A DNA stretch of 64,000 nt from a virus. Every line of letters starts with the position of its first letter. The first letter of the stretch is position 1. Shown here piece by piece: positions 40,331 through 62,022 of the stretch. The position numbers and the translations under genes are program-made. The stretch spans positions 95,484 through 159,483 of the IMG/VR virus record IMGVR_UViG_3300005573_000054, one strand, 5' to 3'. The notes beneath the pieces are model-generated. The model saw nothing but the letters and a program-made list of their open reading frames with translations. It was not told where the DNA came from and searched no databases.

Positions 40331-40332
40331 AG

Positions 40333-41367
40333 ATGAGTTATGCGTTTGTTGACCTCTTAGAGCAAAATATCTTCAATCTCGAGATGAGAGATAGAATAAT
40401 TGAGTTGTTTAGGTCGTTTAAAGAGGGTGAGATCGATGAGTTGAAGTTCGTAGGAGAACTCAAGGAAATAGCGACTAGTCTATTACAAGATGTCGGTGTA
40501 GAGACTGTCCCTGATCTTCTGTTAAGAGATAATATCAGGTTTATGGCTACAGTGACGCATTTTGTTTCCAGAACAATTATTTACATCTCAACTATAGCCA
40601 TTAAAGAGCTTCCACCTGAGGTCAGTGCTTCAGGATTTCTCTTTGAATTAGGAATATACTACTTGACAGCAACACAAAAGCAAGTTAACATTTTCTATAA
40701 AGTTAGAAATGCTCTTTCTATATTGATGGGATTCCTCTTTACGGGTTCGGGATTGCTTGTGATGGCTAGAGTTTTCTACGAGATCTTTAAGGCATTCTCA
40801 AATAGTCAAGCAAAGACTTCCGTTGATAATTTCTTCTCGTCACCTTCTACGAAGAAGTTTATCAGATACCTCTTTGTTGTGACTCTTATTTCGATAGGAA
40901 TGTTTCTCTTTTGGACGGGACTCAGTAGAGCATTTTTAGGAAAACCATCGAAAGATATGATTTTTGTGTATAAATTGGGTCTAGTGTCAGCATGTATGCA
41001 ATATTTCCAATATACTAAGAATGTTACGACGATGCTTTTATTTCCTAGTAAGATAGTTAATACTATCGTCTCTTTTGTCATCAAAAACTTTTCCCCATTT
41101 TCTGTTAATAGGTCAACTCAGGCCTTGAAGCCAAAAGCTATTCTTAATGCGTTTGGAGAATTTTACAAACGGCATCTTAAAGAAAAAACAAATCTTACCC
41201 CAGAAGAGATTGATCTTCTTTCGAAAGAATATGAGCAGTTGAAAAAGAGTGTCGATGAAAAGACTCTTAATGGATGGGTTGGTGAGTTGATGGAAATAGT
41301 AGGAAGAGTTAAGATTAAACCACCTCCTACTGTAGGTCAGATAGAGTTCTTGGGAAAACCCGAATAA
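40333..41367 (+). CDS. Membrane protein, M48/zincin-like without HExxH; paralog of 41428..42564
   Basis: Shared motifs ELxxEVxAxxxLxxLG and KDxxFVYKLG; two TM segments; N-terminal LLE. Confidence 0.55.
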   Translation: MSYAFVDLLEQNIFNLEMRDRIIELFRSFKEGEIDELKFVGELKEIATSLLQDVGVETVPDLLLRDNIRFMATVTHFVSRTIIYISTIAIKELPPEVSASGFLFELGIYYLTATQKQVNIFYKVRNALSILMGFLFTGSGLLVMARVFYEIFKAFSNSQAKTSVDNFFSSPSTKKFIRYLFVVTLISIGMFLFWTGLSRAFLGKPSKDMIFVYKLGLVSACMQYFQYTKNVTTMLLFPSKIVNTIVSFVIKNFSPFSVNRSTQALKPKAILNAFGEFYKRHLKEKTNLTPEEIDLLSKEYEQLKKSVDEKTLNGWVGELMEIVGRVKIKPPPTVGQIEFLGKPE

Positions 41368-41427
41368 TTTTAGAGATCAAACTTTAGAGAAAATATTTTT
41401 ACTTAAACCTAAAGGGGGAGTAGTATA

Positions 41428-42564
41428 ATGAGAAAATCATACTATCGTCTTTTAGAAGAAGTATTTGATATTGAAAAGCGGAAACAGATTATTAACATTT
41501 TTGAAAATTTCAGAAATGGAAAGATCACAGAGCATGATTTCATTGAACAGTTGGAAGGATTTTCTCAAGTTTTATTGGGAGAATATGCGAAAGGAAGATC
41601 AATACCCTTAATTAGGGTTGCAAAAGATGCTAGTTATATTGTTTTGGTCGATCTTCCGGGACGTGATCAGAAGGCAATTGTAGTTTCAGAACGTGTACTC
41701 TCGGAGTTAGGTTCTGAAGTAACGGCAGCTGCATATTTGTACTGCTTAGGAGCCGCTCTTTTCTATGGTAGGTGGCGGAGGTTTTTGAAGTGGTCTATGA
41801 TAGGTACTTTTTCAGTAGGGGGACTTTCATTTATTGCGAGTATTGTACGAGGTGCAATAGTAGATTTTAATGTGTCTGGTGTAGGAGATATGGTAACTGC
41901 ATTTAAAAAGATAGCAAAGGGTGATTATAGCTCTAAAAATATAATCCATCATAAAGATATGTGGTTTAAAATATTTTTTTGGGTGTTTTTAATTTCGTTT
42001 GCTGTTTTCGCTGTTTTGGGACTTATTTGGATTTTTGGTAATGTCTTTTCTAAAGGACTTCTCTCGAAAGACAAGTTTTTCGTGTATAAACTTGGTTTCG
42101 CGGGAGATCTAGCAAAATATTTTGATTATGTAAAAAAACTGCTGACTTCGTACGTTTCCGACACCAAACTTATGGCCGCTATGGCCCGAGATTCATTTGA
42201 AGAATATGTGTCTAAGTATGGATTCTCGGAAAAAGCTCCTATAATTTCTACGGAAAATCTACTTAAGGGATTTAGGAAGTTTATTAAGAAACAGTCGTCA
42301 CGTTTAGGATTATCCTCAGAAGATAAAGAGATAATAGGAAGGCAGATGTTATCACTTGAAGAACTTTCCAGACGTGAAGAAATGGATAGTTTTATTACTG
42401 AGAATATAGTTCAAGCGTCAGGGAAGATAGTAAGTAGCGCATCAGTGACGAAAGAACCAAGGCAATCACCTGGATCTTGGACTAGAGATGCAATGTTTAA
42501 TATTGGTGGAACGGTTTTGCGTTCTGTGGCGTCTCAAGTATTCGGTGAACGATATTACGAATAA
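41428..42564 (+). CDS. Membrane protein, M48/zincin-like without HExxH; paralog of 40333..41367
   Basis: Same shared motifs, TM segments and N-terminal LLE as 40333..41367. Confidence 0.55.
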   Translation: MRKSYYRLLEEVFDIEKRKQIINIFENFRNGKITEHDFIEQLEGFSQVLLGEYAKGRSIPLIRVAKDASYIVLVDLPGRDQKAIVVSERVLSELGSEVTAAAYLYCLGAALFYGRWRRFLKWSMIGTFSVGGLSFIASIVRGAIVDFNVSGVGDMVTAFKKIAKGDYSSKNIIHHKDMWFKIFFWVFLISFAVFAVLGLIWIFGNVFSKGLLSKDKFFVYKLGFAGDLAKYFDYVKKLLTSYVSDTKLMAAMARDSFEEYVSKYGFSEKAPIISTENLLKGFRKFIKKQSSRLGLSSEDKEIIGRQMLSLEELSRREEMDSFITENIVQASGKIVSSASVTKEPRQSPGSWTRDAMFNIGGTVLRSVASQVFGERYYE

Positions 42565-42567
42565 ATT

Positions 42568-42987
42568 ATGTTTCTAGAACTATGGAGTCCTGGTCGTAAA
42601 TATCGGTTTGTATTTCATAAACACAAGGCAGAAAAAGCAGGACTCCACTACGATCTTAGAATCGAAAACAATAAAGGAACTCTTTCAAGCTTTGCGGGAA
42701 GAAAGTTGAAGTCGTGTTTCTTTGATAAATTTACCCGAGTAGCAGTGTTTCCACAAGCAGACCATCATATCTCGTGGCTTAAGTTTAAAGGGACTTGGGA
42801 AACGGGATATGGGAAAGGGAAATTTACTGTTGAAGACCATGGTGTTGTGACAGTTATAAGCGTAGGTGAGAATACTATATGTTTCGATTTTGTAGGAAAA
42901 AGGAAACTTGTTAATGGTCAGTTTTGTCTTCTCCGTCTAAGAAGTGATATGTATCTTTTCTTTCGAAAAAACAAGATCAGTAAATAA
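42568..42987 (+). CDS. Stand-alone LigD-type DNA 3'-phosphoesterase domain
   Basis: FVFHKHKA..AGLHYDLRIE, LSSFA, DH...W..F.G...GYGKG....DHG. Confidence 0.85.
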   Translation: MFLELWSPGRKYRFVFHKHKAEKAGLHYDLRIENNKGTLSSFAGRKLKSCFFDKFTRVAVFPQADHHISWLKFKGTWETGYGKGKFTVEDHGVVTVISVGENTICFDFVGKRKLVNGQFCLLRLRSDMYLFFRKNKISK

Positions 42988-43004
42988 CATCTGAGAGGGA
43001 AAAA

Positions 43005-43835
43005 ATGACACAAAGAGTTATGGAAGAATTATTACGAGATGAAACAGATTTTATGCTTCTAGAGGAAATACTGTGCTCTCTAAAAGGAGTAAACGTAACT
43101 GATTACAGATATCGATATACCCCTCATATGAAACGAGAGCTGTTTTGGTTGTTTATTGAGGGTAAAAGAAACATTGATCCTTTGAAAGCGATGGTTCTCG
43201 AGCAGAAACTTTCTCTTTCAAGATCGAGAAAAAGATTAGGTCTCGTTCTGGAGGAAAATGGTGCAAAAGTCAAACTTTCGGAAGACCAATCTGAAACACT
43301 TAAGGAAATTCTTATTAAACTCTCGGCGGTATTACTTAAAGAAAAGGACGATCAATCATATGAAGAAGTAAAGAAAGAGTTAAATACTCTTTTCGAGAAG
43401 GCAAAAGCTCCAGAAGGATATGCGGAAAAAGTATTTGAAGAACAGAAACGTTTACGTCTTCCCCCCAAAACATTACAGAAACTCATTCGTACCGTAAACG
43501 AAAAAATCGAAGAGAAACTCAAAGTCAGCGATCCAAAGTCTAATCTAGCAAAATTCTTGAGATGGCTTCAAGAGAACGTAGTACTCGGTACTAACATACA
43601 GAGATACGGATTCATTGCGGCAATTATTATCACAGCAATTCTCATTCTATTTCTTATGTCTAAGATTCCTGTGATAGGAAAACTTTTTAAATTCTTGTTA
43701 AAGATTATCTTTTTACCTCTTACCCTTCTAGTGAAAGGACTTACGTTCATTTTAAAGAAATTAGGTATCATGACACCAGAAGAAGCAAAACAGACAATTA
43801 ATAACGTTCAACAACAAAAAGCGGCTATAGCATGA
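43005..43835 (+). CDS. Putative internal virion protein with C-terminal TM/amphipathic helices
   Basis: MLLE and VLE motifs; TM GFIAAIIITAILILFLM. Architecture resembles 27328..28077. Confidence 0.5.
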   Translation: MTQRVMEELLRDETDFMLLEEILCSLKGVNVTDYRYRYTPHMKRELFWLFIEGKRNIDPLKAMVLEQKLSLSRSRKRLGLVLEENGAKVKLSEDQSETLKEILIKLSAVLLKEKDDQSYEEVKKELNTLFEKAKAPEGYAEKVFEEQKRLRLPPKTLQKLIRTVNEKIEEKLKVSDPKSNLAKFLRWLQENVVLGTNIQRYGFIAAIIITAILILFLMSKIPVIGKLFKFLLKIIFLPLTLLVKGLTFILKKLGIMTPEEAKQTINNVQQQKAAIA

Positions 43836-44203
43836 TCCCGATAGAGTCTCCTTCCAAAAATAACAACCAAGAAGAAGATCAGTGTTTATGCGAAGATATA
43901 TTCGATATTGAAATTATGTCGTTTGTCATGAGTAACGAGATTATTTCCATGTTTTGTCGTTTTTTAGTGGAAAAGAGAGCATTATCGCTTCTCTACACAA
44001 AGTTCCGTGATAAAATTTTTTATTTGTATCCTGGTGCAATTTCAAATATAATAAACACGATTAACGAAGAGGTTGTTAGGATTGTGTATGAGATCGAGAA
44101 CATTGAAGAGAGAATATATTTTCTTAGAACGAAGTCATGTTTGTTGATTCAAGAAAGGTTTGAGAAAGAGCTTAATAGAGTAGTAGCAGAAAGACAAAAC
44201 TAA
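43832..44203 (+). CDS. Hypothetical protein
   Basis: ATGA overlap with the upstream gene. Confidence 0.55.
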   Translation: MIPIESPSKNNNQEEDQCLCEDIFDIEIMSFVMSNEIISMFCRFLVEKRALSLLYTKFRDKIFYLYPGAISNIINTINEEVVRIVYEIENIEERIYFLRTKSCLLIQERFEKELNRVVAERQN

Positions 44204-44231
44204 CATTTTGACATTTTGAAAGGAGGTTACA

Positions 44232-45587
44232 ATGACAACTGTAATTTCAATTAAGGCTAATCCACAAAAGAAGGACGAGGCACTTATCAGTTTTAAAGAC
44301 TTTAGTCCCGTCACTGTGACGGCAACAACAGCAACCTGTAGAAAGATTGAGTCCTTAGAGCAGTACTGGAATATCTTCTATGAAAACATTCCAACCTTTA
44401 AGGAATACGTTCATGGAATCTTTGACGAATCCCATAAACAATTATCGAATCGAGAACTTATCAATATAATCACTAATGTTACAAAAGATTGTGTTGAATA
44501 CCTGATTGATACGTATGACATCAAGATTAGTTCTTGGTGTGATTCCTCAAAGAGGACAAAGACGAGTTTCTTCGTTGATGAGCAAGAAGCAGAGATGATC
44601 TTTGAGTTCGTTGTTTCGCTTATCGTTTCTTTCCCATATTTCTTCAACATAAAAGAAATAGGAGATGCAATAACTGATAAATACCGCAAAGTGATTAGCA
44701 CCCTATGGAAGCTCAGTATTTCAAGGATGAAATTTGACGATTACAAGCAAGCGCTTATTGTCTTTAAATGTCTACTATCCGAAGAGGCAACGTACCTTAC
44801 GAATTTTATCCATGTAGTCTTTTCACTTCTTACAAGTTGTAACATCTCAAAGGTTTCAAACTTCTTTGGGTATTTTGTGAGTGTCATCTCAGAAAGTTAT
44901 CAATTCACAATAAAGAGTTTTCCTGAGACTCAAGTACCTCCAACTACAATAAGAGACCTCCTTATGAGAAGAGAGTCTCATAGTAAAGATCTTATAAGTG
45001 TTATATCGACTACGTTGTTAGTGTCAAAGACTCTATCGCTTGTGCAAAGCAAATGTAGAGCAATCAAAGAAAGTATCAAGACTCCGTTGGGAATTATCAC
45101 TGGAGATATCTTTAGGCAAGTCTTTTCGATTGATGAAGCAGTTCTAAATAGATATACGCTTGAGTTTCAGTACTTGATGTATTTGCTGTGTAAGGGAAGT
45201 AAAAAATTAAAGAGTCTATATCCTCACGCAGTTGATCTTTTTAGAGTAGCCGCAAAGACCCCAGAAGTAGTAAAAAAGGGGAGAAGTTCTTTCTTATCAC
45301 TAAAGTCACTGTTAATCAAGCATGACCTTCCGTATATTGATATTCTTTTAAGACGACTTTCAAAACTGTCTCATTTAAAGAACTTTGAACAACTTATCTA
45401 TATGGACACAGGAAACCCCTTTGAAAAGAACGCTCTTTACAAAGGGATAGTTGAAATGGTGGATTTTTACACAAAGGTTGTAGTAGATGATGATTCAGAT
45501 GTAGTTGATGAACTTAAGAGATGTCTATCAAAGATTGATTTTAGAATCCGTTCCTCAGAAGACCTTTTGTCCTTAAAACTTGTGTAA
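44232..45587 (+). CDS. Hypothetical helical protein; candidate sigma-like promoter-specificity subunit
   Basis: AGGAGG RBS; 451 aa, predicted helical, adjacent to the RNAP genes. Function is inference only. Confidence 0.4.
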   Translation: MTTVISIKANPQKKDEALISFKDFSPVTVTATTATCRKIESLEQYWNIFYENIPTFKEYVHGIFDESHKQLSNRELINIITNVTKDCVEYLIDTYDIKISSWCDSSKRTKTSFFVDEQEAEMIFEFVVSLIVSFPYFFNIKEIGDAITDKYRKVISTLWKLSISRMKFDDYKQALIVFKCLLSEEATYLTNFIHVVFSLLTSCNISKVSNFFGYFVSVISESYQFTIKSFPETQVPPTTIRDLLMRRESHSKDLISVISTTLLVSKTLSLVQSKCRAIKESIKTPLGIITGDIFRQVFSIDEAVLNRYTLEFQYLMYLLCKGSKKLKSLYPHAVDLFRVAAKTPEVVKKGRSSFLSLKSLLIKHDLPYIDILLRRLSKLSHLKNFEQLIYMDTGNPFEKNALYKGIVEMVDFYTKVVVDDDSDVVDELKRCLSKIDFRIRSSEDLLSLKLV

Positions 45588-45595
45588 AGTTGTTC

Positions 45596-45624
45596 GAGGG
45601 TAAGGATTCCTTACCCTCTTTTAT
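45596..45624 (+). terminator. Intrinsic terminator
   Basis: Perfect 10-bp stem gagggtaagg-att-ccttaccctc followed by TTTTAT. Confidence 0.8.
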
Positions 45625-45631
45625 CTCATAT

Positions 45632-45645
45632 GAACAAACATAGAA
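45632..45645 (+). promoter_or_regulatory. Candidate GAACAWA promoter for the RNAP operon
   Basis: GAACAAACATAGAA lies between the terminator and the AGGAG RBS of ATG 45660. Confidence 0.5.
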
Positions 45646-45659
45646 CAAGGAGAGTAAAG

Positions 45660-45863
45660 ATGAGCAGAAAGAAAACTTATAAGAAAAACCTCGAAAATGA
45701 AATGGCTTATCATGAAGTCTTCTATGATAAGCGAGGTAAACCCATTCACGTCTCTTATGAGAGTACAGCAGATGAAATAGGTAGTAGTAATGATGAGGTG
45801 TCCGAGCTCATAGAACAAGTTCTAAAGGTGAAAAAGAGTTTAAGGAAAGATGCAACTTATTAA
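45660..45863 (+). CDS. Small hypothetical protein leading the RNAP operon
   Basis: AAGGAGAG RBS before ATG 45660; overlaps the beta' start. Confidence 0.55.
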   Translation: MSRKKTYKKNLENEMAYHEVFYDKRGKPIHVSYESTADEIGSSNDEVSELIEQVLKVKKSLRKDATY

Positions 45864-48800
45864 CATCAATGAAGTAAAGACTTATGGTGTTGTTACTTCT
45901 CCTAAGGGTTACGACCCTAAGACAAAGACCCCTGATCCCAGAGGTCTCTTTAGTTGGGAAATCTTTGGGAAAACAATCCTGGAAAGGTCCAGTAGGTTTG
46001 GAAAGATCGAATTACCTGTTGGTGTATTTCATCCTATTTTCTTTGAAGTTCTTAAAGAAAAAGAAAGATCTCTTATAGAAAAAGTCCTTTCAAACAAACC
46101 CTATATAATACACAAGAATCAGGTTACTTTCTTTGAAAATCCCTCAGAGGCTTCTTCGAAGGGAGTAGACCCAAGTACTCTTCTCTATGGGATCTATTCG
46201 ATCATAAAGAATTACAGAAGTATCTTCTCTAACACAGAGAAACCTGATATTAGAGAGTATATAATCAAATATGATGCCAGTACTTTAATAGTAAATAGTA
46301 TTCCAGTAATTCCTCCAGTTTTTAGAGGTGATAGTCTAGAGGGAAGTACTCATCCTCTTAATAATCTCTACGCAAATCTCATTAAGTATTCGTTTAGGTT
46401 TACATCAAGAAAACTCTTTGATGAACATAATCCAATATTCGGATTGTCTTGTAACTCAATCCAGATAATGGTCCATGAGATATTCCTATTTCTTATGAAT
46501 ATGTATCGAGGGAAACAAGGGATTCTTAGAAGGAACATTGCCGGAAAAAGGATTGATTTTTCCGCTCGAGGAGTAGCAAGTGGAGATGTCTCTGTTCCTC
46601 TTGATCATGTTAAAGTTCCTGTAAGGCTACTGGTTAAAATCTTTGAACCATTTATTATCAAGAGGTTTATCAGAGAGTTCAATGTCAGTATAGATGATGC
46701 TTTGAGGATAATAGAAAAGATCTATTATTACCCCCATACTCCAGAGCTTATTAAAGAGCATCCCGAGTATAAACGCTACATAAATGTGGTTGAAGAAGAG
46801 TCTAGAGATCAGATTGTCTTGATTAAGAGAGATCCTGTTATTCATAGACTTGGTCTTAGTGCTATGAAGGTTATTCCATCATATGAAAATACGATCTGTG
46901 TAAACCCTTTGGAAACTTCAGGGTTCAATCTAGATTATGATGGAGACACTGTAGCAGTGTTTGCGTTGAATTCAGTAGAGGCAAAGAGCCAAGTACAGAA
47001 ACTTCTTAATCCTTATCATCCTGCAGATCCACAGCGACTTAAGTATACCTGGAACAAAGACTACTCATTTGTCTTTAAAGCAGTTACTTTAGATGCCCCA
47101 GAAGAGTTGATTAATCTGGAGACGAATTCTTTAGTAAAAGAGATCTGGTCTCAGACCAATGTAAACGTTGAAGGATCAAAGTATAAAGTTACAAAAGGTC
47201 TAGAGTTGGTGTTTAAGTGTCTTCCCGAGAAGTCTCGCTCAAAGAAAGTCTTTGAAGACGTCTTCTATAACATCTGGAAGAAAAATAAGTATCTTGATGG
47301 GGGTGAGACTTCTACTCTCCTTCTTCGATACCTTTCCGTAGAGGACGTGAAACAATTTCTTACTACGTGTTCACAGAAACTCTCTGAGTATATAACTTAT
47401 TTCTCAGAGTGTCTTACTCTCGCTGATCTGATAACCTCAGAGAGGATTAATAAAGTATTTAGAGAAGAAATAACAAAATTGAAATCTTCTTCAAAGTCAG
47501 ACACAGAGTTTCTCGAGAAACTCTCTTCTCTCTATAAAGAGTGGTCAGAAAACATTGTCAGGGAAGCTTCAAAGAAAAGTTCTATTAAGAAATCAATAAC
47601 TACAAACAGCGTTAAGAAAGTTCAACTCCTCCAAATTCTTTTAGCAAAAGGTTTCGTAGAAGATTGGAAGAAACAAGTGAAATTTATAACGTCTAATATT
47701 GGTTCGGGGTTCTCTGAAGATGAGTTTATACTGTCAGGGCACTCTGCAAGACTAGGTATTGCCTATAGAGTTATAAAGACTACAGAACCTGGTGTTTTAC
47801 ATAGACTTCTTAGCATTGGACTGAGTAGTGTCAAGTTGTCAGAGAGTAATCTTAAAGACTGTGGTACTACGAGGTATATTAATATAAAAAACTGTAATAA
47901 GTCGCTTCTGCAACGTCTTATAGGTAGGTATTATGTTGATGAAGTTGGTAAGTTGAAAATAATTACTGAAGATGATATTCCTCTTCTTGAAGGAAAGAGT
48001 ATCGATCTTAGGTCACCTATAACATGTAAGTCTCCTCAGATTTGTTTCACCTGCTATGGAGAAGGAGTTAACTTCTGGAATACAAAAGAAATAGGGCTCC
48101 TTGCGGGATTAAGTATTGGAGAAAGAATGTACCAGGAGATGATGAAAGTCTTTCATCTGGGTGGAGTTACACAAGTTTCGTTCTTTGATCCGTTCGAGTT
48201 CATGGAAAAAGAACTAAAAATGGATACTAGAAAAATAAAGTCGGTTCTTGAGTATAATCCTTCCTCTAAAAAAATGATTATAAAAGGTGAAGACTTCGAG
48301 GTTAGAATTTCTACAGAGTTGTTTGAAGATTTAGCAAAGACAATAAGCAAAATCGATGAACCAGTAAGTGTAGAAGTCTCTGAGTTGATCGTTAGTGTGA
48401 AGACGAAAGATGGAGAAGAGGATCTATTATTTGTCCCTGGACGATGTATGATTTTCGTTGAACCTCATAATGTTATAGGGTATGATAGGAGTGAAGATCC
48501 TCCCAAAATTGTGTTAAAGTTTATCTCCTCTGATAAAGGTAAAGAATTGATCAGTATGCTACCAAGCAAAGGTGGTATTGATCGAAGTATAATGCTTTGG
48601 AAGTTGATTGTTACTCACTCGTCGAAACTCCCAAGGATGAGAGAAAACGAGTTGCTTATGTTGATGTTTAATGCTGTGAAAGATCTAGGTAAAGTCGCTC
48701 TTGTTCATTATGAGGTACTTTTAAGTCACCTGTTGAGGTACCGCCAAGATATAAGAATACTAGCAAGACTTCATAGTCCCTATGATCCAGTCCTCGTCCC

Positions 48801-48957
48801 TATAACAAAGACTATCCAGCTTGACCATCCTCTGTTAGGCGGATTCTTTAGTGATATGAAAAAGAATATTAAAAGAGGCGTGATTTCTTCCACAAGTACA
48901 GTTTCGTTTCATAACCTTGATAACACGCTTCTAAGAGTGATCTCGGGAGAAGAGTAA
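45850..48957 (+). CDS. rpoC: Phage multisubunit RNA polymerase beta'-like subunit
   Basis: GLFSWEIFG, GKRIDFSARGV, RDPVIHRLG, catalytic NLDYDGD, bridge helix ARLGIAYRVIKTTEPG, LRSPITC..ICFTCYG and trigger loop SIGERMYQEMMKVFHLGG. Confidence 0.95.
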   Translation: MQLININEVKTYGVVTSPKGYDPKTKTPDPRGLFSWEIFGKTILERSSRFGKIELPVGVFHPIFFEVLKEKERSLIEKVLSNKPYIIHKNQVTFFENPSEASSKGVDPSTLLYGIYSIIKNYRSIFSNTEKPDIREYIIKYDASTLIVNSIPVIPPVFRGDSLEGSTHPLNNLYANLIKYSFRFTSRKLFDEHNPIFGLSCNSIQIMVHEIFLFLMNMYRGKQGILRRNIAGKRIDFSARGVASGDVSVPLDHVKVPVRLLVKIFEPFIIKRFIREFNVSIDDALRIIEKIYYYPHTPELIKEHPEYKRYINVVEEESRDQIVLIKRDPVIHRLGLSAMKVIPSYENTICVNPLETSGFNLDYDGDTVAVFALNSVEAKSQVQKLLNPYHPADPQRLKYTWNKDYSFVFKAVTLDAPEELINLETNSLVKEIWSQTNVNVEGSKYKVTKGLELVFKCLPEKSRSKKVFEDVFYNIWKKNKYLDGGETSTLLLRYLSVEDVKQFLTTCSQKLSEYITYFSECLTLADLITSERINKVFREEITKLKSSSKSDTEFLEKLSSLYKEWSENIVREASKKSSIKKSITTNSVKKVQLLQILLAKGFVEDWKKQVKFITSNIGSGFSEDEFILSGHSARLGIAYRVIKTTEPGVLHRLLSIGLSSVKLSESNLKDCGTTRYINIKNCNKSLLQRLIGRYYVDEVGKLKIITEDDIPLLEGKSIDLRSPITCKSPQICFTCYGEGVNFWNTKEIGLLAGLSIGERMYQEMMKVFHLGGVTQVSFFDPFEFMEKELKMDTRKIKSVLEYNPSSKKMIIKGEDFEVRISTELFEDLAKTISKIDEPVSVEVSELIVSVKTKDGEEDLLFVPGRCMIFVEPHNVIGYDRSEDPPKIVLKFISSDKGKELISMLPSKGGIDRSIMLWKLIVTHSSKLPRMRENELLMLMFNAVKDLGKVALVHYEVLLSHLLRYRQDIRILARLHSPYDPVLVPITKTIQLDHPLLGGFFSDMKKNIKRGVISSTSTVSFHNLDNTLLRVISGEE

Positions 48958-51900
48958 TGGCTGATAAGAAGAAACCAGCAGTAAAACTTAAGAGTGTACA
49001 AATCAAGTCGTTTATCCCTCTTGATTTTGGAGAAAAAGTTCATATCTTCATGTTAAGAGATAAAGATCTTCCTCTTGAAAGAATTGCTAAGGCTTTCAAG
49101 CCTTTCGTGAAGAATAGGATTGGATTGAAAGTATATAGAATGCAGAGGGTGGTGGGGTCATATGTGGTTCAGAGGATTGCTCAGTTTCAGCCATTGGGTA
49201 CTATGAGGTGGACTCCTAAATATGAGTGGTCAGAGTTATCAAGGTATAATACTGTTATTGAAGATATCTCTCCTATAGTGTTTAGAATTGATGCTTACCC
49301 TGCTATAGCTCCTATCTGGAGTACAGTTTTACCTTTTAAGACGGTTCAGGCAAATAGAAGACCAATATTAATGATTGTTAGAGATATCTCCTCTCCAGTC
49401 TCTTTGTCTATTTACAAGACTTTGCTAAACGTGTATTATAGAGTGGTTAGAGGTCAACTTTCATTCGGGTTTATAATCTGTTGCTTTATCACTCCAAAGA
49501 ATTCGTGTAGGTGGATAATCTTAAAGACCCCTGAAGACGAGGGGTCTTCTATAGAGATGAGGTCGATTAGAATTCTAGTGAGGCTCTTAAAGTCCTCTGA
49601 GAAGAAGAGTGTGGTCTCAGATCATGAAAAGTTGCTTCAAGAGGTTGAAGACATTGTACATAAAGCTGTAGAAGAAGATGAGAAAGAAGTGGAACAGCAG
49701 AGAGTCTCTCAAAGTCTCCACCTGGGAAAACAAGAAGTTTCCAGAGAAGTTCATATGGCTGGTAAAACTATAAAGACGTTTGAGAGAAAAGAACCCGAGA
49801 TAGTCAAATACGGGAAAAGACATGAGAGTCAGGCTGTAAAGCAACTTTCTAAGTCGTTGCTCAATACCGAAGATAAGAAAAAAATAGTCAAAGTTGCCTC
49901 AATTAAAAGCTCGAAAGAGACGTTAGATAAAATACATGATATAGTGAAGCAGAAGATTGTTAAGAAAGTCAGTGTGCCTGAAGTAAGTAAAAAAGAGTTG
50001 AAAACCATAAGTGCTCAGTATGAGATGATAAAACAGGATGTACTTGTAGCCGAGAGCACAAAAGAAGATTCTTTCAACTATATTAGGGAAAGAAGCCCTT
50101 TAAAGACGGTAGTAAAGACAGCTTCGAGTAATTTTCTCCTTAACAACAAAGTGTCGACTATTCCCGATCACGCTAGAGCGACATGTGAAGAGGGACCTGA
50201 TTTATTGACAAGTCTTATACAACACGCAGTTGTTTCATTGGGAATGATTCTAGAAAAAGTAGAGAAAGAAAAATACACATATAAGTCGCTTGATAAGACT
50301 CAAGTCAACGCGGGTCAGAAGATAACCTATTACATCAAAGACGGTGACATCACCCATGAGGCATCATTTTTCCTTCCTTCAGTAGATCAACACGGAAGAT
50401 TACTTCTAAACAACCGATACTATACACTTACTTCGCAATTATTTCCAAACCCTTTTAAGAATAGTGTACCCGGAGTCGTAAAGATCTTTACCTTAAAAAA
50501 CTCAATTACCTTTGAGTCGAGAAAGAACTACACTCAAGTAAGGATTGCAGGAGCTACACTAACTCCACCCTTCCTTGTATGTCTTTTGGGAGCAGGAGAG
50601 TCAACGTTTAAAGAGCTTCTTAAGAAATACGGAATTGACTACGTGATAGAAGATGTAGATAAGTTTCCAAAACGACCTTCAAACGTCTATATGTTTCCCT
50701 TATCAAAGACAAAGAGGATCATCTTTAGAAACCTTGATACACCCAAGAAGAAAAGACTTATTCAAGATCTGTTTGTAGCCACAAAGTTAATATATGTTTG
50801 GGAAAAACTTCTTGATTATGAACCACTGTCGCAAGATTGGTGGGCATCATGGTGTAATATCCTCTCTGACAATGTTAACAGTGCATACTACGTTAGACTT
50901 ATATCGAGAATTATCATCGATCCAATAACAGCAAAGTTACTCAAACAGAAAGGTCTTCCTTCCCAGTTGAATGAGTTGCTTCTACATGTCTATGATAAAC
51001 TTGTTGAAGATCCTAACCTGTTGACTCAAGATAAGATAGATATAACAAATTTTAGATTAAGAACGTATGAACAGATTGTCCATCTTGCATATGAGATGTT
51101 CCTTGAGCAGTTGCTCCTTTATGTAAGGAATAGGGACGTCTATAACTTTAGAAAACCTCTTAATATAACTCCGTGGACGATAATTAGTAGATTAGTAGCT
51201 GGATTTAGTGGGTTAAAGCTAAGAGAGTACGTTAATCCTGTAGAAGATGTTACATCAAGAAGTCGTCTTGATTGGAGAGGACAGGGAGGAATAATAGAAA
51301 GAGCAGTTACGATGGATCAACGAGGTCTTCATGATTCGTATAGGGGTCTTGTAGATCCTGTTGATACCTCGGAAGGAGAGTTGGTGGGAGTTTCTCAACA
51401 GGCTGCAAACGCGTTTGATGTTATTACTCATACGGGTATTATTAACACAGAGGTCAAAAAACTTGCGTCAAAGGGACAACTGCTTGGTCCTACTATTAGT
51501 TGTATACCTTTCTCCAGGTTTAATGAAACTACTCGACTTCTTATAGCCTCGTCTCAGCTTAAACAGGCGATTAGAGTCGAAGATATACAGCCTCCCGCAG
51601 TGATGTCAGGTTACGAATCTATTATTTCCGTGTTTGCTTCCGATGAGTTTGTTAAAAAGAGTCCTTGTTCCGGAAAAATAGAAAAAATCACTCTTAACGA
51701 AGTTGTGATCAACTGTGATAATAATCAAGTCCATACGATTAGTCTGGAGCCTGTTTTTGGAAGAAGTGGTTATGGACATCATTCATACCTTGAGTATTCA
51801 CTCTGTGAAGATGTTGCTCCTTCAAAGAGAGTATCATCTGGTCAGATTATAGCTACAAGCCCATTCTTCCATGAAGAATTCTACCAATATGGTAGTAATC

Positions 51901-53231
51901 TTCTTGCAACGTTTCTCTCCTACAAAGGATACACATATGAAGATGGCATTGTGATCTCAGAGTCTACCTCTAAGCGTATGTCAAGTAAACATGTTCATGT
52001 TTATAGGTCATATCTTGAACCAACTGATCGTCTGTTGAGTCTTGGAATTTCAGATGTTGGTAGTATTGTTGAACCAGGTGATGTTCTGTTGACAGTAGAT
52101 TCAAAGGAGTTTTTTAAGTACCTTGATTCTGAATTGTTTGAGAATACTGAAGTCGTAGCAAGTAGCACTGGGTATAAAGTTGTTAGTAGTTGCAGAGGTC
52201 AAGTTAAGAGAGTGAGTATATATGTGACTCCCTCCTATGAGATGGTAATCATTAAAGACCAAAAGGCAAAGAAGTTTATTGTGGAAAAAAAGGATTCAGT
52301 AGTTTATTTTAAGAACAAGCCACTTCAGGGTCTTTATATAGAGATTGAAATAATCTTCGATCTTCCAGTAGGATTGGGAGATAAGTTTGTTTCAAGACAT
52401 GCTAATAAGGGAGTTGTTGCAGCTGTCCTCCCTGATGATGAGATGCCTTTTTCGAAGTTTCACAAGAGGAATGTTGATATTATCTTTTCTCCAGCAGCTG
52501 TTATAGATAGAGCAATAACAGGTCTAGTTTATGAGATGTACATGAGTAATATCAGTTTTGTCCTGGGAGAATATTGGCTTAAGAATGCCTCAAAGGGTTC
52601 TCTCGATAAGACAGAATCACTTTTTAGACATCTACAGATGTGGGATAAACAATCTCAGTTTTACAAAAAGTTTCTGGATGATCTTTTTATAAACCCAGTT
52701 CTTCAGAAGAAAGTGACGTCGCTGTGTAAAAAGACAAAAGGATTGTTCCCACTTCATGTCTTCCCATGGGAAGAGCCAAGTCCACAGGAAATAGCAAAAG
52801 TCTGTCATCTTCTTAATGTGCCTATTAACTACGATCTTGAAGTTTTGACTTCTGATGGAAGAAAAGCCAAGCTTAGCACTGTTGCAGGTTTTCTGTATGT
52901 TATTAAGTTGGAGCATGTTGCCTCTCTTACCAAGTTGAAAGGTAGAAGTATAGGACCATATAATGTTAAGACAGGACAACCAATAGCAGGAAAGCAAGGA
53001 GGTCAACGTCTTGGTGAATTTGAGACGTTTAGTCTTATCTCGTGGGATGTTCCTGATGTTATAAAAGAACTTCACATAGACAATGCGGCATTGAAGAGGA
53101 AGATGTATATGTCGATAATAGAGAAAGGTTCAGTTTCACTTAAGGACATTTACACAGAAGCCAAACACGTATCGAGCAAGGCAGTTAATTTCTCTGATGT
53201 TATCCTTAAGTCGATGTTATTGAAAGCGTAG
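48957..53231 (+). CDS. rpoB: Phage multisubunit RNA polymerase beta-like subunit with N-terminal extension
   Basis: DPVDTSEG, SCIPF...QLKQA, GYTYEDGIVISE, GDKFVSRHANKGVV, YVIKLEH, GGQRLGEFE. Confidence 0.95.
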   Translation: MADKKKPAVKLKSVQIKSFIPLDFGEKVHIFMLRDKDLPLERIAKAFKPFVKNRIGLKVYRMQRVVGSYVVQRIAQFQPLGTMRWTPKYEWSELSRYNTVIEDISPIVFRIDAYPAIAPIWSTVLPFKTVQANRRPILMIVRDISSPVSLSIYKTLLNVYYRVVRGQLSFGFIICCFITPKNSCRWIILKTPEDEGSSIEMRSIRILVRLLKSSEKKSVVSDHEKLLQEVEDIVHKAVEEDEKEVEQQRVSQSLHLGKQEVSREVHMAGKTIKTFERKEPEIVKYGKRHESQAVKQLSKSLLNTEDKKKIVKVASIKSSKETLDKIHDIVKQKIVKKVSVPEVSKKELKTISAQYEMIKQDVLVAESTKEDSFNYIRERSPLKTVVKTASSNFLLNNKVSTIPDHARATCEEGPDLLTSLIQHAVVSLGMILEKVEKEKYTYKSLDKTQVNAGQKITYYIKDGDITHEASFFLPSVDQHGRLLLNNRYYTLTSQLFPNPFKNSVPGVVKIFTLKNSITFESRKNYTQVRIAGATLTPPFLVCLLGAGESTFKELLKKYGIDYVIEDVDKFPKRPSNVYMFPLSKTKRIIFRNLDTPKKKRLIQDLFVATKLIYVWEKLLDYEPLSQDWWASWCNILSDNVNSAYYVRLISRIIIDPITAKLLKQKGLPSQLNELLLHVYDKLVEDPNLLTQDKIDITNFRLRTYEQIVHLAYEMFLEQLLLYVRNRDVYNFRKPLNITPWTIISRLVAGFSGLKLREYVNPVEDVTSRSRLDWRGQGGIIERAVTMDQRGLHDSYRGLVDPVDTSEGELVGVSQQAANAFDVITHTGIINTEVKKLASKGQLLGPTISCIPFSRFNETTRLLIASSQLKQAIRVEDIQPPAVMSGYESIISVFASDEFVKKSPCSGKIEKITLNEVVINCDNNQVHTISLEPVFGRSGYGHHSYLEYSLCEDVAPSKRVSSGQIIATSPFFHEEFYQYGSNLLATFLSYKGYTYEDGIVISESTSKRMSSKHVHVYRSYLEPTDRLLSLGISDVGSIVEPGDVLLTVDSKEFFKYLDSELFENTEVVASSTGYKVVSSCRGQVKRVSIYVTPSYEMVIIKDQKAKKFIVEKKDSVVYFKNKPLQGLYIEIEIIFDLPVGLGDKFVSRHANKGVVAAVLPDDEMPFSKFHKRNVDIIFSPAAVIDRAITGLVYEMYMSNISFVLGEYWLKNASKGSLDKTESLFRHLQMWDKQSQFYKKFLDDLFINPVLQKKVTSLCKKTKGLFPLHVFPWEEPSPQEIAKVCHLLNVPINYDLEVLTSDGRKAKLSTVAGFLYVIKLEHVASLTKLKGRSIGPYNVKTGQPIAGKQGGQRLGEFETFSLISWDVPDVIKELHIDNAALKRKMYMSIIEKGSVSLKDIYTEAKHVSSKAVNFSDVILKSMLLKA

Positions 53232-53241
53232 GAGGAAGTCA

Positions 53242-53805
53242 ATGGAACACACTATAGTAGACCACTCTTATCCCCTTTCAGAGATTGACGAAGAGATACT
53301 TCAAAACGAAGAAGAACTTCTTAGGTATGAAGATACCTCTACAGTTACGTTGTTGTTAAACCTCCGTTATATGTTTAGTGAGTATGTTAATGAAGTTGTT
53401 AATCTTGATATAGACACAATGATGTTCGTAAGGATAAGATGGCCTTTTCTGGAGAAGCTCTTGTCAAGAGCAGCTTCTACCACTGACGTTTACTCCGCTA
53501 TTTTTATCAGTGATGTAGTTGCCTTGTGTAGGTCCTTCGAGAAAGAGGGTTGGTGTTTAAGAAAACTTAGATCGTCTGTGGAAACATCATCAAAAACTCT
53601 TCAGCAAGTCGTATGTGAGTTTCTACAAGATGTGTATAATCTCTATTCCAAGTCAACACTTCTTTCCTATGAAGAGTGTGAAAAAGAAATCGATGACTTC
53701 ATAAAGAACCATTGGGAGGATGAGACGCTTACAAGTGATGAGAGGCAAAGACTCAAGGAAGTACTTCGTATATTATGTATGATTCCAAAGGAGGTTGATA
53801 ATTGA
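53242..53805 (+). CDS. Hypothetical protein
   Basis: AGGAGG RBS. Confidence 0.6.
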   Translation: MEHTIVDHSYPLSEIDEEILQNEEELLRYEDTSTVTLLLNLRYMFSEYVNEVVNLDIDTMMFVRIRWPFLEKLLSRAASTTDVYSAIFISDVVALCRSFEKEGWCLRKLRSSVETSSKTLQQVVCEFLQDVYNLYSKSTLLSYEECEKEIDDFIKNHWEDETLTSDERQRLKEVLRILCMIPKEVDN

Positions 53806-54209
53806 TGATAGAAAAAGAGGCTCAGAGTCTGAGAAAAGAAGAGATCGAGAAGAATAAACAAAAACTCAAGACACATGTAGGATCTCTTGAGGAAGTAGAA
53901 AAAGGTCTTAGAGAACTCGTTCTTGGAAGTATTTCCCAACAAATTCCAGAAACAAAAAAGTTTCAGTATTACAGAATAAAGAGTATAGAGATGCTTACTA
54001 ACTCCTATGAAAAGGTTCTTGACCTTGTCTTGAAGTATAGACAGGCTATACACTCGATGGAGAGTGAGTTGTTAGATAGAGAGTTGTCGGAGAGTGATGT
54101 AAGTCGTAGCTTTGGTCCAGATATGTGGCTGGATCTAATCAAGAATAGTAATCTTCAAGACGAAAGTCTAGAAGACGTACAGACTGAAGAAGATATAGTT
54201 GTTCCATAA
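53802..54209 (+). CDS. Hypothetical helical protein
   Basis: AAGGAGG upstream; translationally coupled to the previous gene. Confidence 0.55.
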   Translation: MMIEKEAQSLRKEEIEKNKQKLKTHVGSLEEVEKGLRELVLGSISQQIPETKKFQYYRIKSIEMLTNSYEKVLDLVLKYRQAIHSMESELLDRELSESDVSRSFGPDMWLDLIKNSNLQDESLEDVQTEEDIVVP

Positions 54210-54236
54210 TAACATCTTACCATTCAGGAGGTAAAC

Positions 54237-55379
54237 ATGAGTAAAATTGTACAGGATGTCTATGAGGTCCTTCAAAACACCTTTACGAAGAATCTCGACT
54301 TGGTTGTTGTGGATGAAAATAATGAGAGAAGACTTCCAACTGATTTTCCGTTGATTGATAAATTCGTTTTTGGTGGAGGTATCCCGATAGGAACGTTTAT
54401 TATGTTCGTGGGACATCCGGGATCATTTAAATCCACGTTTGCTGGAAGTCTTTGCGCTATGGCCCAGAAGCAGGGTGCTATTATTATCTATCTTGATGCA
54501 GAGGCATCTACTACCCAGTCACGTCTTCAAAATCTTGGTATGAAAGATGTAAAACCACTGACTGGAATTACTGTGGAAAAAGTAAATGGGCTTCTTTTAA
54601 ATATTGCGAAGTTGAAGAAAGAGAAAGAAGAACTTAAAGAAGTTCCTTTTATAGTTGTGTGGGATTCTGTTGCCTCAACACCTTGCGAAGCAGATCTTTC
54701 TACAGATGATATAACAAAAACGATTGGTCTTAAGTCTCGACTCTTAAGTAACTTTATGCCTAAGTGGATCAACGAAATACTTCCTAAGAATAACATCTCT
54801 ATATTCTGTATCAACCAGTTAAGAGAGAAAGTTTCTTTGGGAATTACCTCTCCGAGTATTCAGCTTAAGAATCTTTCAAGTGATAAAACTCTACCTGGAG
54901 GAAATGTAATCCAGTACTTGTCAACAGTGATATTCGAGCATAAAGTTAGATCTGTGTTTGATAATCAACTTTCTCCTTATGGGTTTAGATGTAGTCAAGT
55001 AGAGGTGAAAACTGTTAAGAATAAATACTTCGTTGATGCTCTAAAGTTTAACTTTATCTTCTCTCCTGTAGCAGGGCTTAATACTATTTATAGTGAGTTT
55101 GAGTTTTTAAAGTCGTGTAAAAAAGTAGTCTCTAAGGGTGGTTATTGGTATATCGGTGATATGGATGTTAAGTTTAGATTAAAAGAGCTTCAAAGGCTTG
55201 TGACTGTAGAAGAAGACTTTAAAATGAAATGGAAAGATACTGTTGAAACTACTATTGAAGAAGTACAGAAAACTCTTACTTCAGGTGGGTTTGTTGAGGG
55301 AATAATTGGAGATGATTCCAATGGAAGTGTTGAGTCAGAAAAAGAAGAAGTTGAAAGAGGTGAAAGTTTTCTAGAATAA
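54237..55379 (+). CDS. uvsX: RecA/UvsX-like recombinase
   Basis: GGGIP, Walker A GHPGSFKST, YLDAE, VVWDSVA, INQLR, PGG, KNK. Confidence 0.9.
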   Translation: MSKIVQDVYEVLQNTFTKNLDLVVVDENNERRLPTDFPLIDKFVFGGGIPIGTFIMFVGHPGSFKSTFAGSLCAMAQKQGAIIIYLDAEASTTQSRLQNLGMKDVKPLTGITVEKVNGLLLNIAKLKKEKEELKEVPFIVVWDSVASTPCEADLSTDDITKTIGLKSRLLSNFMPKWINEILPKNNISIFCINQLREKVSLGITSPSIQLKNLSSDKTLPGGNVIQYLSTVIFEHKVRSVFDNQLSPYGFRCSQVEVKTVKNKYFVDALKFNFIFSPVAGLNTIYSEFEFLKSCKKVVSKGGYWYIGDMDVKFRLKELQRLVTVEEDFKMKWKDTVETTIEEVQKTLTSGGFVEGIIGDDSNGSVESEKEEVERGESFLE

Positions 55380-55424
55380 TGAACAAAAAATAGAAGATGT
55401 TATTGAATATTTAGGAGGGTCTTT

Positions 55425-55898
55425 ATGTCTCTCGAAGGACAAATAAGAAAGATTATTAATTTCGAAACAAAAATTCTTTCGAATCTGGTTTACGGAAGAC
55501 CAACTATATCTAGAAAAGAAAAGGTGGAGCTTTTGAAACTTCTTGAGGCATCTTATTCTCTTCTTACTCCTACGGAAAAGAAAGCGAGGCTCCAACTTCT
55601 AGAAGGTCTTAGAGTAAAATCTGAGAAACTGAGGGAAACCGAAAGTTTTTCTGATTTCCAGTCTCTATTTGCTGTTACAGAAGAGTTGAAGAAGTATGTC
55701 TTCGAGAATATTAGTGGAACTAGTCATTCAGTTAAGTTACTCAAGGGACCTAAGCATGCTCAGTTCACATTAACGTTTAACTACCTTGTTCCATTTTCAA
55801 AGAAAAACGAGATAAAAGAGCAGAATGATGTCAGTAATCTTACAAAGATGAGGACTCTTGCGAGATCCCTTGGAAAGATTATTTTCTATCAATGTTAA
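55425..55898 (+). CDS. Hypothetical protein
   Basis: AGGAGG RBS; preceded by GAACAAA at 55381. Confidence 0.6.
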   Translation: MSLEGQIRKIINFETKILSNLVYGRPTISRKEKVELLKLLEASYSLLTPTEKKARLQLLEGLRVKSEKLRETESFSDFQSLFAVTEELKKYVFENISGTSHSVKLLKGPKHAQFTLTFNYLVPFSKKNEIKEQNDVSNLTKMRTLARSLGKIIFYQC

Positions 55899-56833
55899 AA
55901 GAATATCTCAAGAACAAAACTATAGAAGAAGTTTTCTCTAAAGATGATAGTAGTTTTAAAACAACTTCTTCCTCCCACAAACATGGTCTACCTCCCAGTG
56001 ATCTAGAGGTTGAGCAGGAGACGAAAGTCTCTTCTCTTCCTCTAGACACAAACAACAACCACTTAATAGAAACAATAGATAACTACTTCGAGTTGTTCTA
56101 TAAAGATCTTAGGAAAGATGCATTTGCTCAGTCTCTAGCGTACCCTTCTGATCTTGAAAAGGGTTATACGATAACAGAGTTGAGTGACTGTCTCCTCAAA
56201 GTGTATTTTTTGAGGAAGCAGAAGGAGTTGATAAAAAGGAATATCTTTTTTATCAATGAAAACAACGTCTTTGAAACAATCCAGCTGTATGCTATAAAAG
56301 GTACAGCGACTCATAAGTTTGTAGAAGAGAAACTTAAGAAGATCCTCTCGAATAAACTGTCAAATGATATCCTTCTTGAACCTTCTCTTTCCCATGAAGA
56401 GCTTAATATACGAGGAAGAGCTGATATCATATGTCCTGATCAGAAATTAATAATCGAGCTTAAGTCTAAAGATAAGCCGTGCAATCCATCTACATCCGAT
56501 GGATTACAGTATAAGATTCAACTCTACTTACAGATGTACCTCGCAAGAAATGGTCTAGTTCATGGAGTTATCGATGAAAATACTCTTCAAAAGATCCGGC
56601 AAGTCCAGTATGGAGTTCTGTGGTTTTTCTTTCCAAAGAAGTACTATATAGTTGAGTGGGATGAAGTAAAAGTACAAGGTTTAATTGATAGAATCAAACT
56701 TCTTAGCACACTATTGTCGCTTCCTTTTCAAGAAGTCGTTTCTCTAAGAAAAGATAGCTTAAAATTGTTGATGAATAAGTCGTTCTGCTTCTTTTGTATT
56801 ATCGATCATACATGTAAGAAGATTCTTTCTTAA
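55892..56833 (+). CDS. Cas4-like PD-(D/E)xK exonuclease with Fe-S cysteines
   Basis: SDC..KVYF, GTATH, RGRAD, IIELKS, QLYLQ and C-terminal CxxCxxxxxC. Confidence 0.8.
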   Translation: MLKEYLKNKTIEEVFSKDDSSFKTTSSSHKHGLPPSDLEVEQETKVSSLPLDTNNNHLIETIDNYFELFYKDLRKDAFAQSLAYPSDLEKGYTITELSDCLLKVYFLRKQKELIKRNIFFINENNVFETIQLYAIKGTATHKFVEEKLKKILSNKLSNDILLEPSLSHEELNIRGRADIICPDQKLIIELKSKDKPCNPSTSDGLQYKIQLYLQMYLARNGLVHGVIDENTLQKIRQVQYGVLWFFFPKKYYIVEWDEVKVQGLIDRIKLLSTLLSLPFQEVVSLRKDSLKLLMNKSFCFFCIIDHTCKKILS

Positions 56834-61880: not shown

Positions 61881-61934
61881 CTGTTGCTCGGTAGCGTGAC
61901 CAGCTAAGACATACCAGATATATATACTAGCAAG

Positions 61935-61965
61935 CCGGTAACAGTGTTACCGGTGGTGTTTTTTT
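61935..61965 (+). terminator. Intrinsic terminator-like hairpin
   Basis: ccggtaac-agt-gttaccgg followed by a T-run. Confidence 0.6.
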
Positions 61966-62007
61966 CGTTGCTCTCGCTAGCCGGTGTTAGCGACATACAC
62001 AAACAGT

Positions 62008-62022
62008 AGATATATATAATAG
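62008..62022 (+). promoter_or_regulatory. Candidate early promoter AGATATATATA(A/C)TAG (second copy at 61916-61930)
   Basis: 15-bp motif duplicated with one mismatch in the largest intergenic gap. This copy contains TATAAT. Confidence 0.55.

Follow-up and report, generated by a model that had tools for sequence, protein, structure and literature searches.

Does the DNA between positions 44232 and 53231 of the window encode a complete transcription module of its own, or one part of a larger system? The window is the 64,000-nt stretch of DNA analysed here, the last 64 kb of the 159,483-bp IMG/VR record IMGVR_UViG_3300005573_000054 (G000; CheckV completeness estimate ~50%). The locus carries genes for the two large subunits of a bacterial-type RNA polymerase (RNAP), beta' and beta, with a candidate sigma-like factor gene directly upstream. 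A first-pass annotation, made from the letters alone, read it as a self-contained, minimal enzyme. This reading had to be changed because a second polymerase set is encoded in the same record. The phage has two bacterial-type RNAPs, as phiKZ and AR9 do, and the window locus represents one half of a system with two polymerases and not a module complete in itself. With moderate confidence, we favour an overall explanation in which this is a two-RNAP jumbo phage that encodes a promoter-specificity factor beside an intact core of the virion-polymerase lineage, and that would follow an AR9-like transcription programme.

The open reading frame (ORF) map and translations place four co-directional genes in the locus, at exactly the coordinates of the first-pass annotation. 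We use type A for the beta'-beta pair of the window and type B for the second set. The locus contains:

44232..45587, + strand: factor gene P0001, 451 aa, predicted sigma-like promoter-specificity subunit of the gp226/gp68 structural family
45596..45618, + strand: terminator-like hairpin, 10-bp stem with 6 G-C pairs and a T-run
45632..45638, + strand: GAACAAA promoter-like motif with an AACA core, preceding the small ORF, beta' and beta
45660..45863, + strand: small basic ORF, 67 aa counted from Met11 of the 77-aa frame beginning at 45630, with a GGAGAG ribosome site in front
45850..48957, + strand: beta' gene P0002, unsplit, type A, 1035 aa, Pfam PF00623 and PF04998
48957..53231, + strand: beta gene P0003, unsplit, type A, 1424 aa, Pfam PF04565 and PF00562

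Based on Pfam matches, P0002 is a beta' subunit (RNA_pol_Rpb1_2 and Rpb1_5) and P0003 a beta subunit (Rpb2_3 and Rpb2_6). Each is a single gene without internal stops, in beta'-then-beta order as had been claimed, and the core is not divided into the five or more polypeptides of a virion RNAP. The beta' stop and the beta start share one base, and the 3' end of the small ORF overlaps the beta' start by 14 nt. The small ORF had been described as a 67-aa gene; it is present, as the Met11 form of the longer frame. It has no Pfam match, a PHROG search returned a weak match to phrog_21321 alone, and the ORFs at this position in related phages differ in size.

We aligned both subunits with Salmonella RpoB and RpoC, taken from a record mislabelled as phage (residue numbers are those of E. 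coli). The beta' motif NLDYDGD retains all three catalytic Asp residues. The N-terminal zinc (Zn) ribbon of beta' (E. coli C70/C72/C85/C88; Zn1 below) is deleted, as the first-pass annotation had noticed, and the second Zn site is retained. In beta, NPVEDVTSRSR corresponds to E. coli 519-529, and the loss of the rifampicin-pocket His is confirmed (H526 to S767) together with further changes: S531 to D772, D516 to E757, Q513 to K and I572 to S. The catalytic motifs of beta are conserved despite this changed pocket. Since the pocket is not conserved, the enzyme is expected to be insensitive to rifampicin, a known trait of jumbo-phage RNAPs (PMC10299810). The window beta also carries an N-terminal extension of ~250-380 aa, for which we found no family match and saw no similarity to the N-terminal extension of phiKZ gp178; within residues 1-380 (window 48957-50100) there is a Lys/Glu-rich low-complexity stretch at ~210-380. 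No alpha gene had been seen in the first pass, and searches of the 159-kb record (~50% complete) for the alpha domain (PF01000) and sigma70 region 2 (PF04542) returned nothing. The window polymerase is thus without a recognisable alpha subunit, like other jumbo-phage RNAPs. Other phage-collection records, including OR846602.1, OR844998.1, CAKLQH020000005.1 and AFYI01000006.1, contain ordinary bacterial rplJL-rpoBC operons and represent either contaminating host DNA or mislabelled contigs, so that apparent phage matches to beta and beta' are too numerous.

The second polymerase set lies 105 kb upstream of the type A pair:

G000:C1:29314-36491, outside the window (L007 3315-10492): split RNAP set, type B, consisting of beta'N 437 aa, a 212-aa ORF, beta'C 672 aa, betaN 436 aa and betaC 644 aa

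This set also runs beta' then beta, in four or five pieces, and directly follows a gene for an S77 prohead protease. The break in its beta falls within ~12 residues of the break in the AR9 non-virion beta.

Which of the two known jumbo-phage enzymes does each set correspond to? We compared the proteins with PHROG families labelled by their phiKZ subunits (non-virion: gp55, gp74, gp71-73 and gp123; virion: gp180, gp80, gp178 and gp149). Three pieces of type B score 89.9, 110 and 119.8 bits on non-virion profiles, versus 50.5, 20.6 and 36.9 bits on virion profiles. The window beta reaches 157 bits with phrog_3148 (the gp178 family) versus 104 bits with the non-virion phrog_3295, and its last 85 residues (1339-1423) match phrog_3233, the gp149 family. 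It thus appears to be the equivalent of phiKZ gp178 plus gp149 in one chain. The N-terminus of the window beta' matches the gp180 family (99.7 bits) and also the gp55 family, and its C-terminal half leans slightly to the non-virion gp74 profile (99.7 vs 80.2 bits).

Phylogenetic analysis (all trees maximum-likelihood, LG+G4) points the same way. In the beta' tree (31 rows), a bipartition with 97/97 support sets type A and the virion beta' proteins apart. The window protein and its metagenomic relatives fall on one side, together with phiKZ gp180+gp80, the AR9 virion beta' and Fusobacterium phage JD-Fnp4. On the other side are the non-virion enzymes, the split set and its unsplit orthologues, RHph_Y65, Carin-5/YerA41 and Bacteria. 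The beta tree (20 rows) has a type A and virion clade at 96/99; an earlier beta tree of 14 rows was unresolved. A bacterial clade with 100/100 support excludes the window subunits in both trees, which rules out a recent bacterial origin and bears out the earlier proposal that they do not nest within RpoB/RpoC. Sequence identity is ~25% over the conserved parts. The Zn1 ribbon is absent from all type A proteins, from both virion enzymes and also from the AR9 non-virion beta', and present in type B, phiKZ gp55, Carin-5 and Bacteria. Taken together, the window pair very probably belongs to the virion-polymerase lineage of phiKZ and AR9, and the trees, PHROG scores and Zn-ribbon pattern place the split set with the non-virion enzymes.

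The assignment could be the other way round, with the window pair as the non-virion counterpart, the split set as the virion enzyme and the trees misled by long branches. The factor, the adjacent core and the late promoters would then form a single AR9-like non-virion holoenzyme. The branches are indeed long, and approximately unbiased (AU) tests do not reject a topology that joins type A with the non-virion enzymes (p-AU 0.107 for beta' and 0.065 for beta). The profile scores of the beta' C-terminal half lean in this direction, the window pair sits among replication genes, and it is the split set, not type A, that adjoins the prohead protease, as the virion genes gp178-180 do in phiKZ. We nevertheless consider this exchange unlikely: both subunit trees join type A and virion enzymes at 96-97% or better, all three pieces of the split set fit non-virion profiles better than virion ones, by 40-90 bits, the Zn1 deletion and a long beta are common to type A and gp178-type subunits, and the beta break of the split set lies ~12 residues from that of the AR9 non-virion enzyme.

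With the window pair assigned to the virion lineage, its relatives bear on how the jumbo-phage polymerases came to be fragmented. Metagenomes contain ~40 clusters of P0002 relatives, each ~1000 aa, on contigs of up to 292 kb. With beta (P0003) as sole query no related locus was found, and related loci came with an alignment query. Two beta' genes each are encoded in four IMG/VR relatives (G001-G004), with lengths of 357 kb (rated complete), 255 kb, 149 kb and 83 kb. In G002-G004 the type A cluster consists of a 481-528-aa gene, a small ORF, a beta' of ~1005 aa and a beta of ~1360 aa, with the beta' of G002 split into 783+230, and the type B cluster consists of an unsplit beta' of ~900 aa and a beta of ~1040 aa. 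Both RNAP lineages thus appear to exist intact within one phage clade, in beta'-then-beta order. Because both occur unsplit in one clade, the divergence of virion and non-virion enzymes would be older than fragmentation, and the split genes of phiKZ, of AR9 and of the type B set of this genome appear to be derived. In a separate observation, the type A beta' of L032 (11465-15766) is split directly past the catalytic domain, with a 268-aa ORF between the halves and a whole beta. This split site is the same as in phiKZ, AR9 and cyanobacteria, and the arrangement resembles an intermediate state of fragmentation.

What, then, is the protein encoded upstream of beta'? The first-pass annotation had compared this helical 451-aa protein, P0001, with the specificity subunits gp226 of AR9 and gp68 of phiKZ. 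Sequence searches with P0001 returned no match in Pfam (E up to 1), PHROGs, PDB sequences (phmmer) or phages (tblastn), and the profiles of sigma-70 regions 2 and 4 do not match it. Six relatives in total were found among 1.8 billion representatives. With hhalign, the P0001-family profile matches the 481-aa proteins whose genes precede other type A clusters (probability 95%, E 4e-8), and HMM searches also gave matches there.

The AlphaFold (AF2) model of P0001 (predicted local distance difference test, pLDDT, 71) is helical with a small N-terminal sheet. It comprises an N-domain (~1-230, sigma-2-like at ~113-228), a low-confidence or disordered linker (~229-253) and a C-domain (~254-451). Foldseek against PDB places 7um0_A, 8que_B and 7s01_A as the top three (E 2e-3 to 1e-2), with the next match at E 0.8. 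VIA-align, a tool independent of Foldseek, aligns the model with 7s01_A at Z 11.3 over 333 residues (model 1-416 vs 2-464), followed by 7ogp_B at Z 5.5 and all others at 4.5 or less. Residues 113-228 match sigma-2 domains at Z 3.3-3.7. Chain 7s01_A is gp226, the 464-aa non-virion subunit of AR9, found in holoenzyme entries only (PMC9209446).

As a replication, the 481-aa subfamily (~16% identical) was folded from an alignment without any member of the first family, giving a pLDDT of ~72. Foldseek returned the same PDB top three for this model (E 2e-5 to 5e-4; next E 0.5). It aligns with gp226 (7s01_A) at Z 20.0 over 374 residues (1-461 vs 4-464) and with gp68 (7ogp_B) at Z 6.4, in the C-terminal domain. 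About 25 sigma-2 domains, including those of T4 gp55, SigB, RpoS, sigmaK, SigW, sigma-32 and sigma-28, match its residues 112-249 at Z 5-8.3 with a root-mean-square deviation (rmsd) of 2.2-3.7 A. A BFVD search with the subfamily model gave 18 proteins of ~500 aa, from RNAP-encoding jumbo phages.

P0001 may be no transcription factor at all, its likeness to gp226 being a chance match of helical folds and its position accidental. Model confidence is moderate (pLDDT 71-72), the note that accompanies VIA-align warns that helical models reach Z ~13 by chance, and sequence homology to gp226/gp68 was not detected: hhalign of the P0001 family against gp226/gp68 gave a probability below 1%. The family hidden Markov model had no match in AR9 or in three phiKZ regions (~127 of 280 kb, gp68 included), and hhalign against phiKZ gp177 and JD-Fnp4 gp85 gave nothing useful. 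A coincidence of this kind is highly improbable, given that two separately built models and two aligners return the same top matches with a large gap to the next, that Z 20 over 374 residues is above the helical background of the tool, that true sigma-2 domains match one and the same sub-domain, and that the viral matches are restricted to RNAP-encoding jumbo phages. The gp226/gp68 family is also known to be extremely divergent in sequence. In all likelihood, P0001 belongs to the gp226/gp68 structural family, with a predicted sigma-like fold, as first proposed.

It was also suggested in the first pass that a promoter is visible in the locus, and a promoter-like motif is indeed present. The hairpin at 45596-45618 begins nine bases past the factor stop codon and is the best-scoring terminator-like site in 40000-56000. 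It is followed by GAACAAA at 45632, before the small ORF, beta' and beta. Across the genome the + strand has 45 copies of GAACAWA, 16 of them in the intergenic 5% (~2.3 expected, a sevenfold enrichment); on the minus strand, 1 of 22 copies is intergenic. Most copies lie 32-66 nt upstream of start codons, and the genes that they head include those for portal, protease and tail fibre and both polymerase clusters. The same GAACAAA follows the factor gene in two distant relatives with ~25-28% beta' identity: in L032 it lies between the factor gene and beta'N, and in L008 in front of a 234-aa ORF that itself precedes beta'. We therefore regard GAACAWA as a candidate class of phage promoters. Its AACA core is also that of AR9 late promoters, which have the form A(-11)ACA-6N-T-A/G(+1) and are read on the template strand by the gp226-containing holoenzyme (PMC5449584).

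A second, AT-rich class (TATTATATATAA, TATATAA) occurs upstream of type B, within an accessory block (55-57 kb of the record) and in a few further gaps, and possibly represents early promoters or host-type -10 boxes. Upstream of type B, GAACAAA is found at 29188 and 29248 and TATTATATATAA at 29281. A scan for sigma-70-type promoters was uninformative (57 sites vs 43 expected). The sites are:

Window 6690, 9901, 22261, 22715, 25865, 45632, 55381 and 56843, and 8 further upstream in the record, + strand: intergenic GAACAWA sites
G000:C1:55340-56602, 92594, 99096 (window 3613) and 157402-157496 (window 61919-62013): TATATAA-type sites
Window 41375-41381: GATCAAACTTTAGAG, in the 60-nt gap before the gene at 41428; of the promoter-like elements that precede the factor gene, the nearest

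The last element is a variant of the GAACAAAC-TAGAG form found before the portal gene. In other genomes, the factor gene of G004 and that of L032 are preceded by clear AT-rich TATA(T/A)AT-type motifs, not GAACAWA (by eye); the same region is AT-rich without a clear motif in L033, G002 and G003, and has none in L008.

These signals suggest how the two polymerases may be used. P0001 would be the promoter-specificity subunit of the phage, docking on the beta' clamp via its sigma-2-like domain and reading the AACA-core GAACAWA elements that head structural genes, both RNAP clusters and the beta'-beta pair. AT-rich TATATAA-type promoters would first drive the genes of the non-virion-type enzyme, and probably the factor gene too. 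The factor together with the non-virion-type core would next read GAACAWA promoters, and the type A beta' and beta would be expressed late from their GAACAWA promoter, for packaging.

Which core does the factor serve? The factor may work with the other polymerase, and not with its neighbour, because gp226 and gp68 are subunits of non-virion RNAPs and because the hairpin and motif separate the factor gene from beta'. This boundary, together with the second polymerase, is what speaks against calling the locus self-contained or minimal. A non-virion-type partner is the option to which we give about half of our confidence, based on the gp226/gp68 homology, the AR9-like pair of promoter classes and the transcriptional boundary. 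A joint role with both cores seems improbable.

The adjacent type A core is a possible partner, clearly less probable than the non-virion-type core, and is favoured by the invariant adjacency and the single detectable factor per genome. P0001 would here be the specificity subunit of type A, made together with it, packaged as a holoenzyme and starting transcription after injection. A factor-family gene stands directly upstream of type A beta' in every relative examined (L008, L032, L033, L048, L050, L058, L061, L070 and G002-G004), across protein identities of ~25%. Among the relatives of P0001, P0127 (L033) and P0130 (L032) are encoded at this position; synteny was read for these two, as the contigs of P0129 and P0006 end before the beta' position. 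One factor-family member is detectable per genome, none of them next to type B, the nearest motif upstream of the window factor unit is a late-type variant, and virion polymerases have no known specificity factor (PMC7598289; PMC13282480). Were this pairing true, the virion RNAPs of phiKZ and AR9 may use an unrecognised gp226-like sigma relative, which would be new. It is opposed by the membership of gp226 and gp68 in non-virion enzymes of two very distant phages and by the terminator-like hairpin and promoter-like motif between factor gene and beta'. The helicase-to-RecA order is kept as a block among the relatives, which makes adjacency weak evidence of partnership. GAACAWA heads structural genes, which are not the expected first targets of an injected enzyme.

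The explanation that we prefer, with the factor directing the non-virion-type core, thus has several results to contend with. Apart from the AU tests and the prohead protease neighbourhood of type B, the factor gene adjoins type A in every relative examined and never type B. The window factor gene has no AT-rich motif upstream, and a GATCAAA variant at 41375 alone precedes its unit. The promoter classes are candidates, assigned by their motifs, and the gp226/gp68 link rests on predicted structures of moderate confidence.

Two further observations concern the surroundings of type B. Weak matches to the factor profile (E ~1e-3, 14 bits) within type B beta, at G004:C1:18718-18936 and G003:C1:113569-113826, are probably noise. 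A gene of ~290 aa lies upstream of type B beta' in G002-G004 (L143 12048-12929, L145 7068-7943, L147 12361-13263); its product has a Rossmann-type GxGxxG by eye, suggesting a possible ThiF/E1-like protein. This gene was considered as the own factor of type B and dropped, on account of the GxGxxG motif and its 14-23% identity with the 282-aa ORF of this genome.

Coding is almost all on one strand across the record. The neighbours of the polymerase locus include genes for a tail fibre, a tape measure, a clamp loader, a primase and a UvsX-like protein. The UvsX/RecA-like recombinase (window 54237-55379) is encoded two genes past beta, in the same order as in L032 and L033. After it, the product of 55892-56833 matches a PHROG labelled 'CRISPR/Cas system associated'.

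The value of the locus is mostly practical. For the jumbo-phage virion RNAP, reviews published to 2026 report no known initiation factor and leave the origin of the two enzymes unresolved (PMC7598289; PMC13282480). The literature that we reviewed holds no solved structure or reconstitution of this enzyme, one obstacle being its five or more fragments. The window offers what is probably the same lineage as two intact genes with near-bacterial catalytic motifs, plus a predicted sigma-like factor and a candidate promoter, a set of parts small enough for expression and testing. Beyond this, the locus informs the question of where the two jumbo-phage polymerases came from, and would extend the gp226/gp68 family and the AACA-core promoter far past the cultured phages.

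How does this system compare with those already described? gp226 (AR9) and gp68 (phiKZ) are the promoter-specificity subunits of non-virion RNAPs, with structures 7S01/7UM0 and 7OGP/8QUE (PMC9209446, PMC8287921). P0001 resembles them in size (451 aa vs 464 and 521), in its two domains with a flexible linker, in the sigma-2-like sub-domain and in full-length structural similarity (Z 11-20, predicted models), and its gene is found only in phages with their own beta/beta' genes. Like AR9, the genome carries an AACA-core promoter-like motif. Unlike gp226 and gp68, P0001 is encoded directly upstream of a virion-type core and has no detectable sequence similarity to either; the cores here are unsplit or split differently.

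The phiKZ virion RNAP consists of gp180, gp80, gp178 and gp149 and a piece like SPN3US gp244 (PMC7598289). The window pair is sister to, or nested with, the phiKZ and AR9 virion enzymes in both subunit trees, and shares with them a beta' lacking the N-terminal Zn ribbon, a long, N-terminally extended beta, the beta'-then-beta order (as gp180 to gp178) and the lack of alpha and omega. In contrast to the phiKZ virion enzyme of at least five polypeptides, that of the window has two, and its catalytic and bridge-helix motifs are far nearer to the bacterial consensus than those of gp178 and gp180.

Among cultured phages, beta'-then-beta with few or no splits also occurs in Cobetia phage Carin-5, Yersinia phage YerA41 and Fusobacterium phage JD-Fnp4. 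Carin-5 encodes on one strand an 'RNA pol sigma factor' of 196 aa, a beta' of 1083 aa and a beta of 927 aa; as in the window, the order in Carin-5 and YerA41 is small gene, beta', beta, and Carin-5 shares the variant motif NLDYDGD with the window beta'. Unlike the window subunits, theirs branch beside Bacteria, with a short beta (~925 aa) and Zn1 kept, and one beta'-like and one beta-like gene were detected per record. Their upstream protein (~200 aa) matches no Pfam sigma family, so that the 'sigma factor' label in Carin-5 is not backed.

The lineage is probably that of the multimeric-RNAP-encoding Caudovirales (mReC) of Weinheimer and Aylward (2020), who used beta and beta' as phylogenetic markers for 97 contigs (PMC7481178). 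Those are, like the phage studied here and its relatives, uncultured tailed phages, some >200 kb, with alignable beta and beta' outside the cellular clades; the window likewise has tail, tape-measure and virion genes, and its beta and beta' branch outside the bacterial clade. A term search of that paper found no mention of whether the genes are split, of genomes with two enzymes, of virion or non-virion types, of phiKZ or of a sigma-like factor. The mReC lineage is published and barely analysed, and what the window adds is an unsplit core, very probably of the virion lineage, beside a very divergent family of candidate specificity factors.

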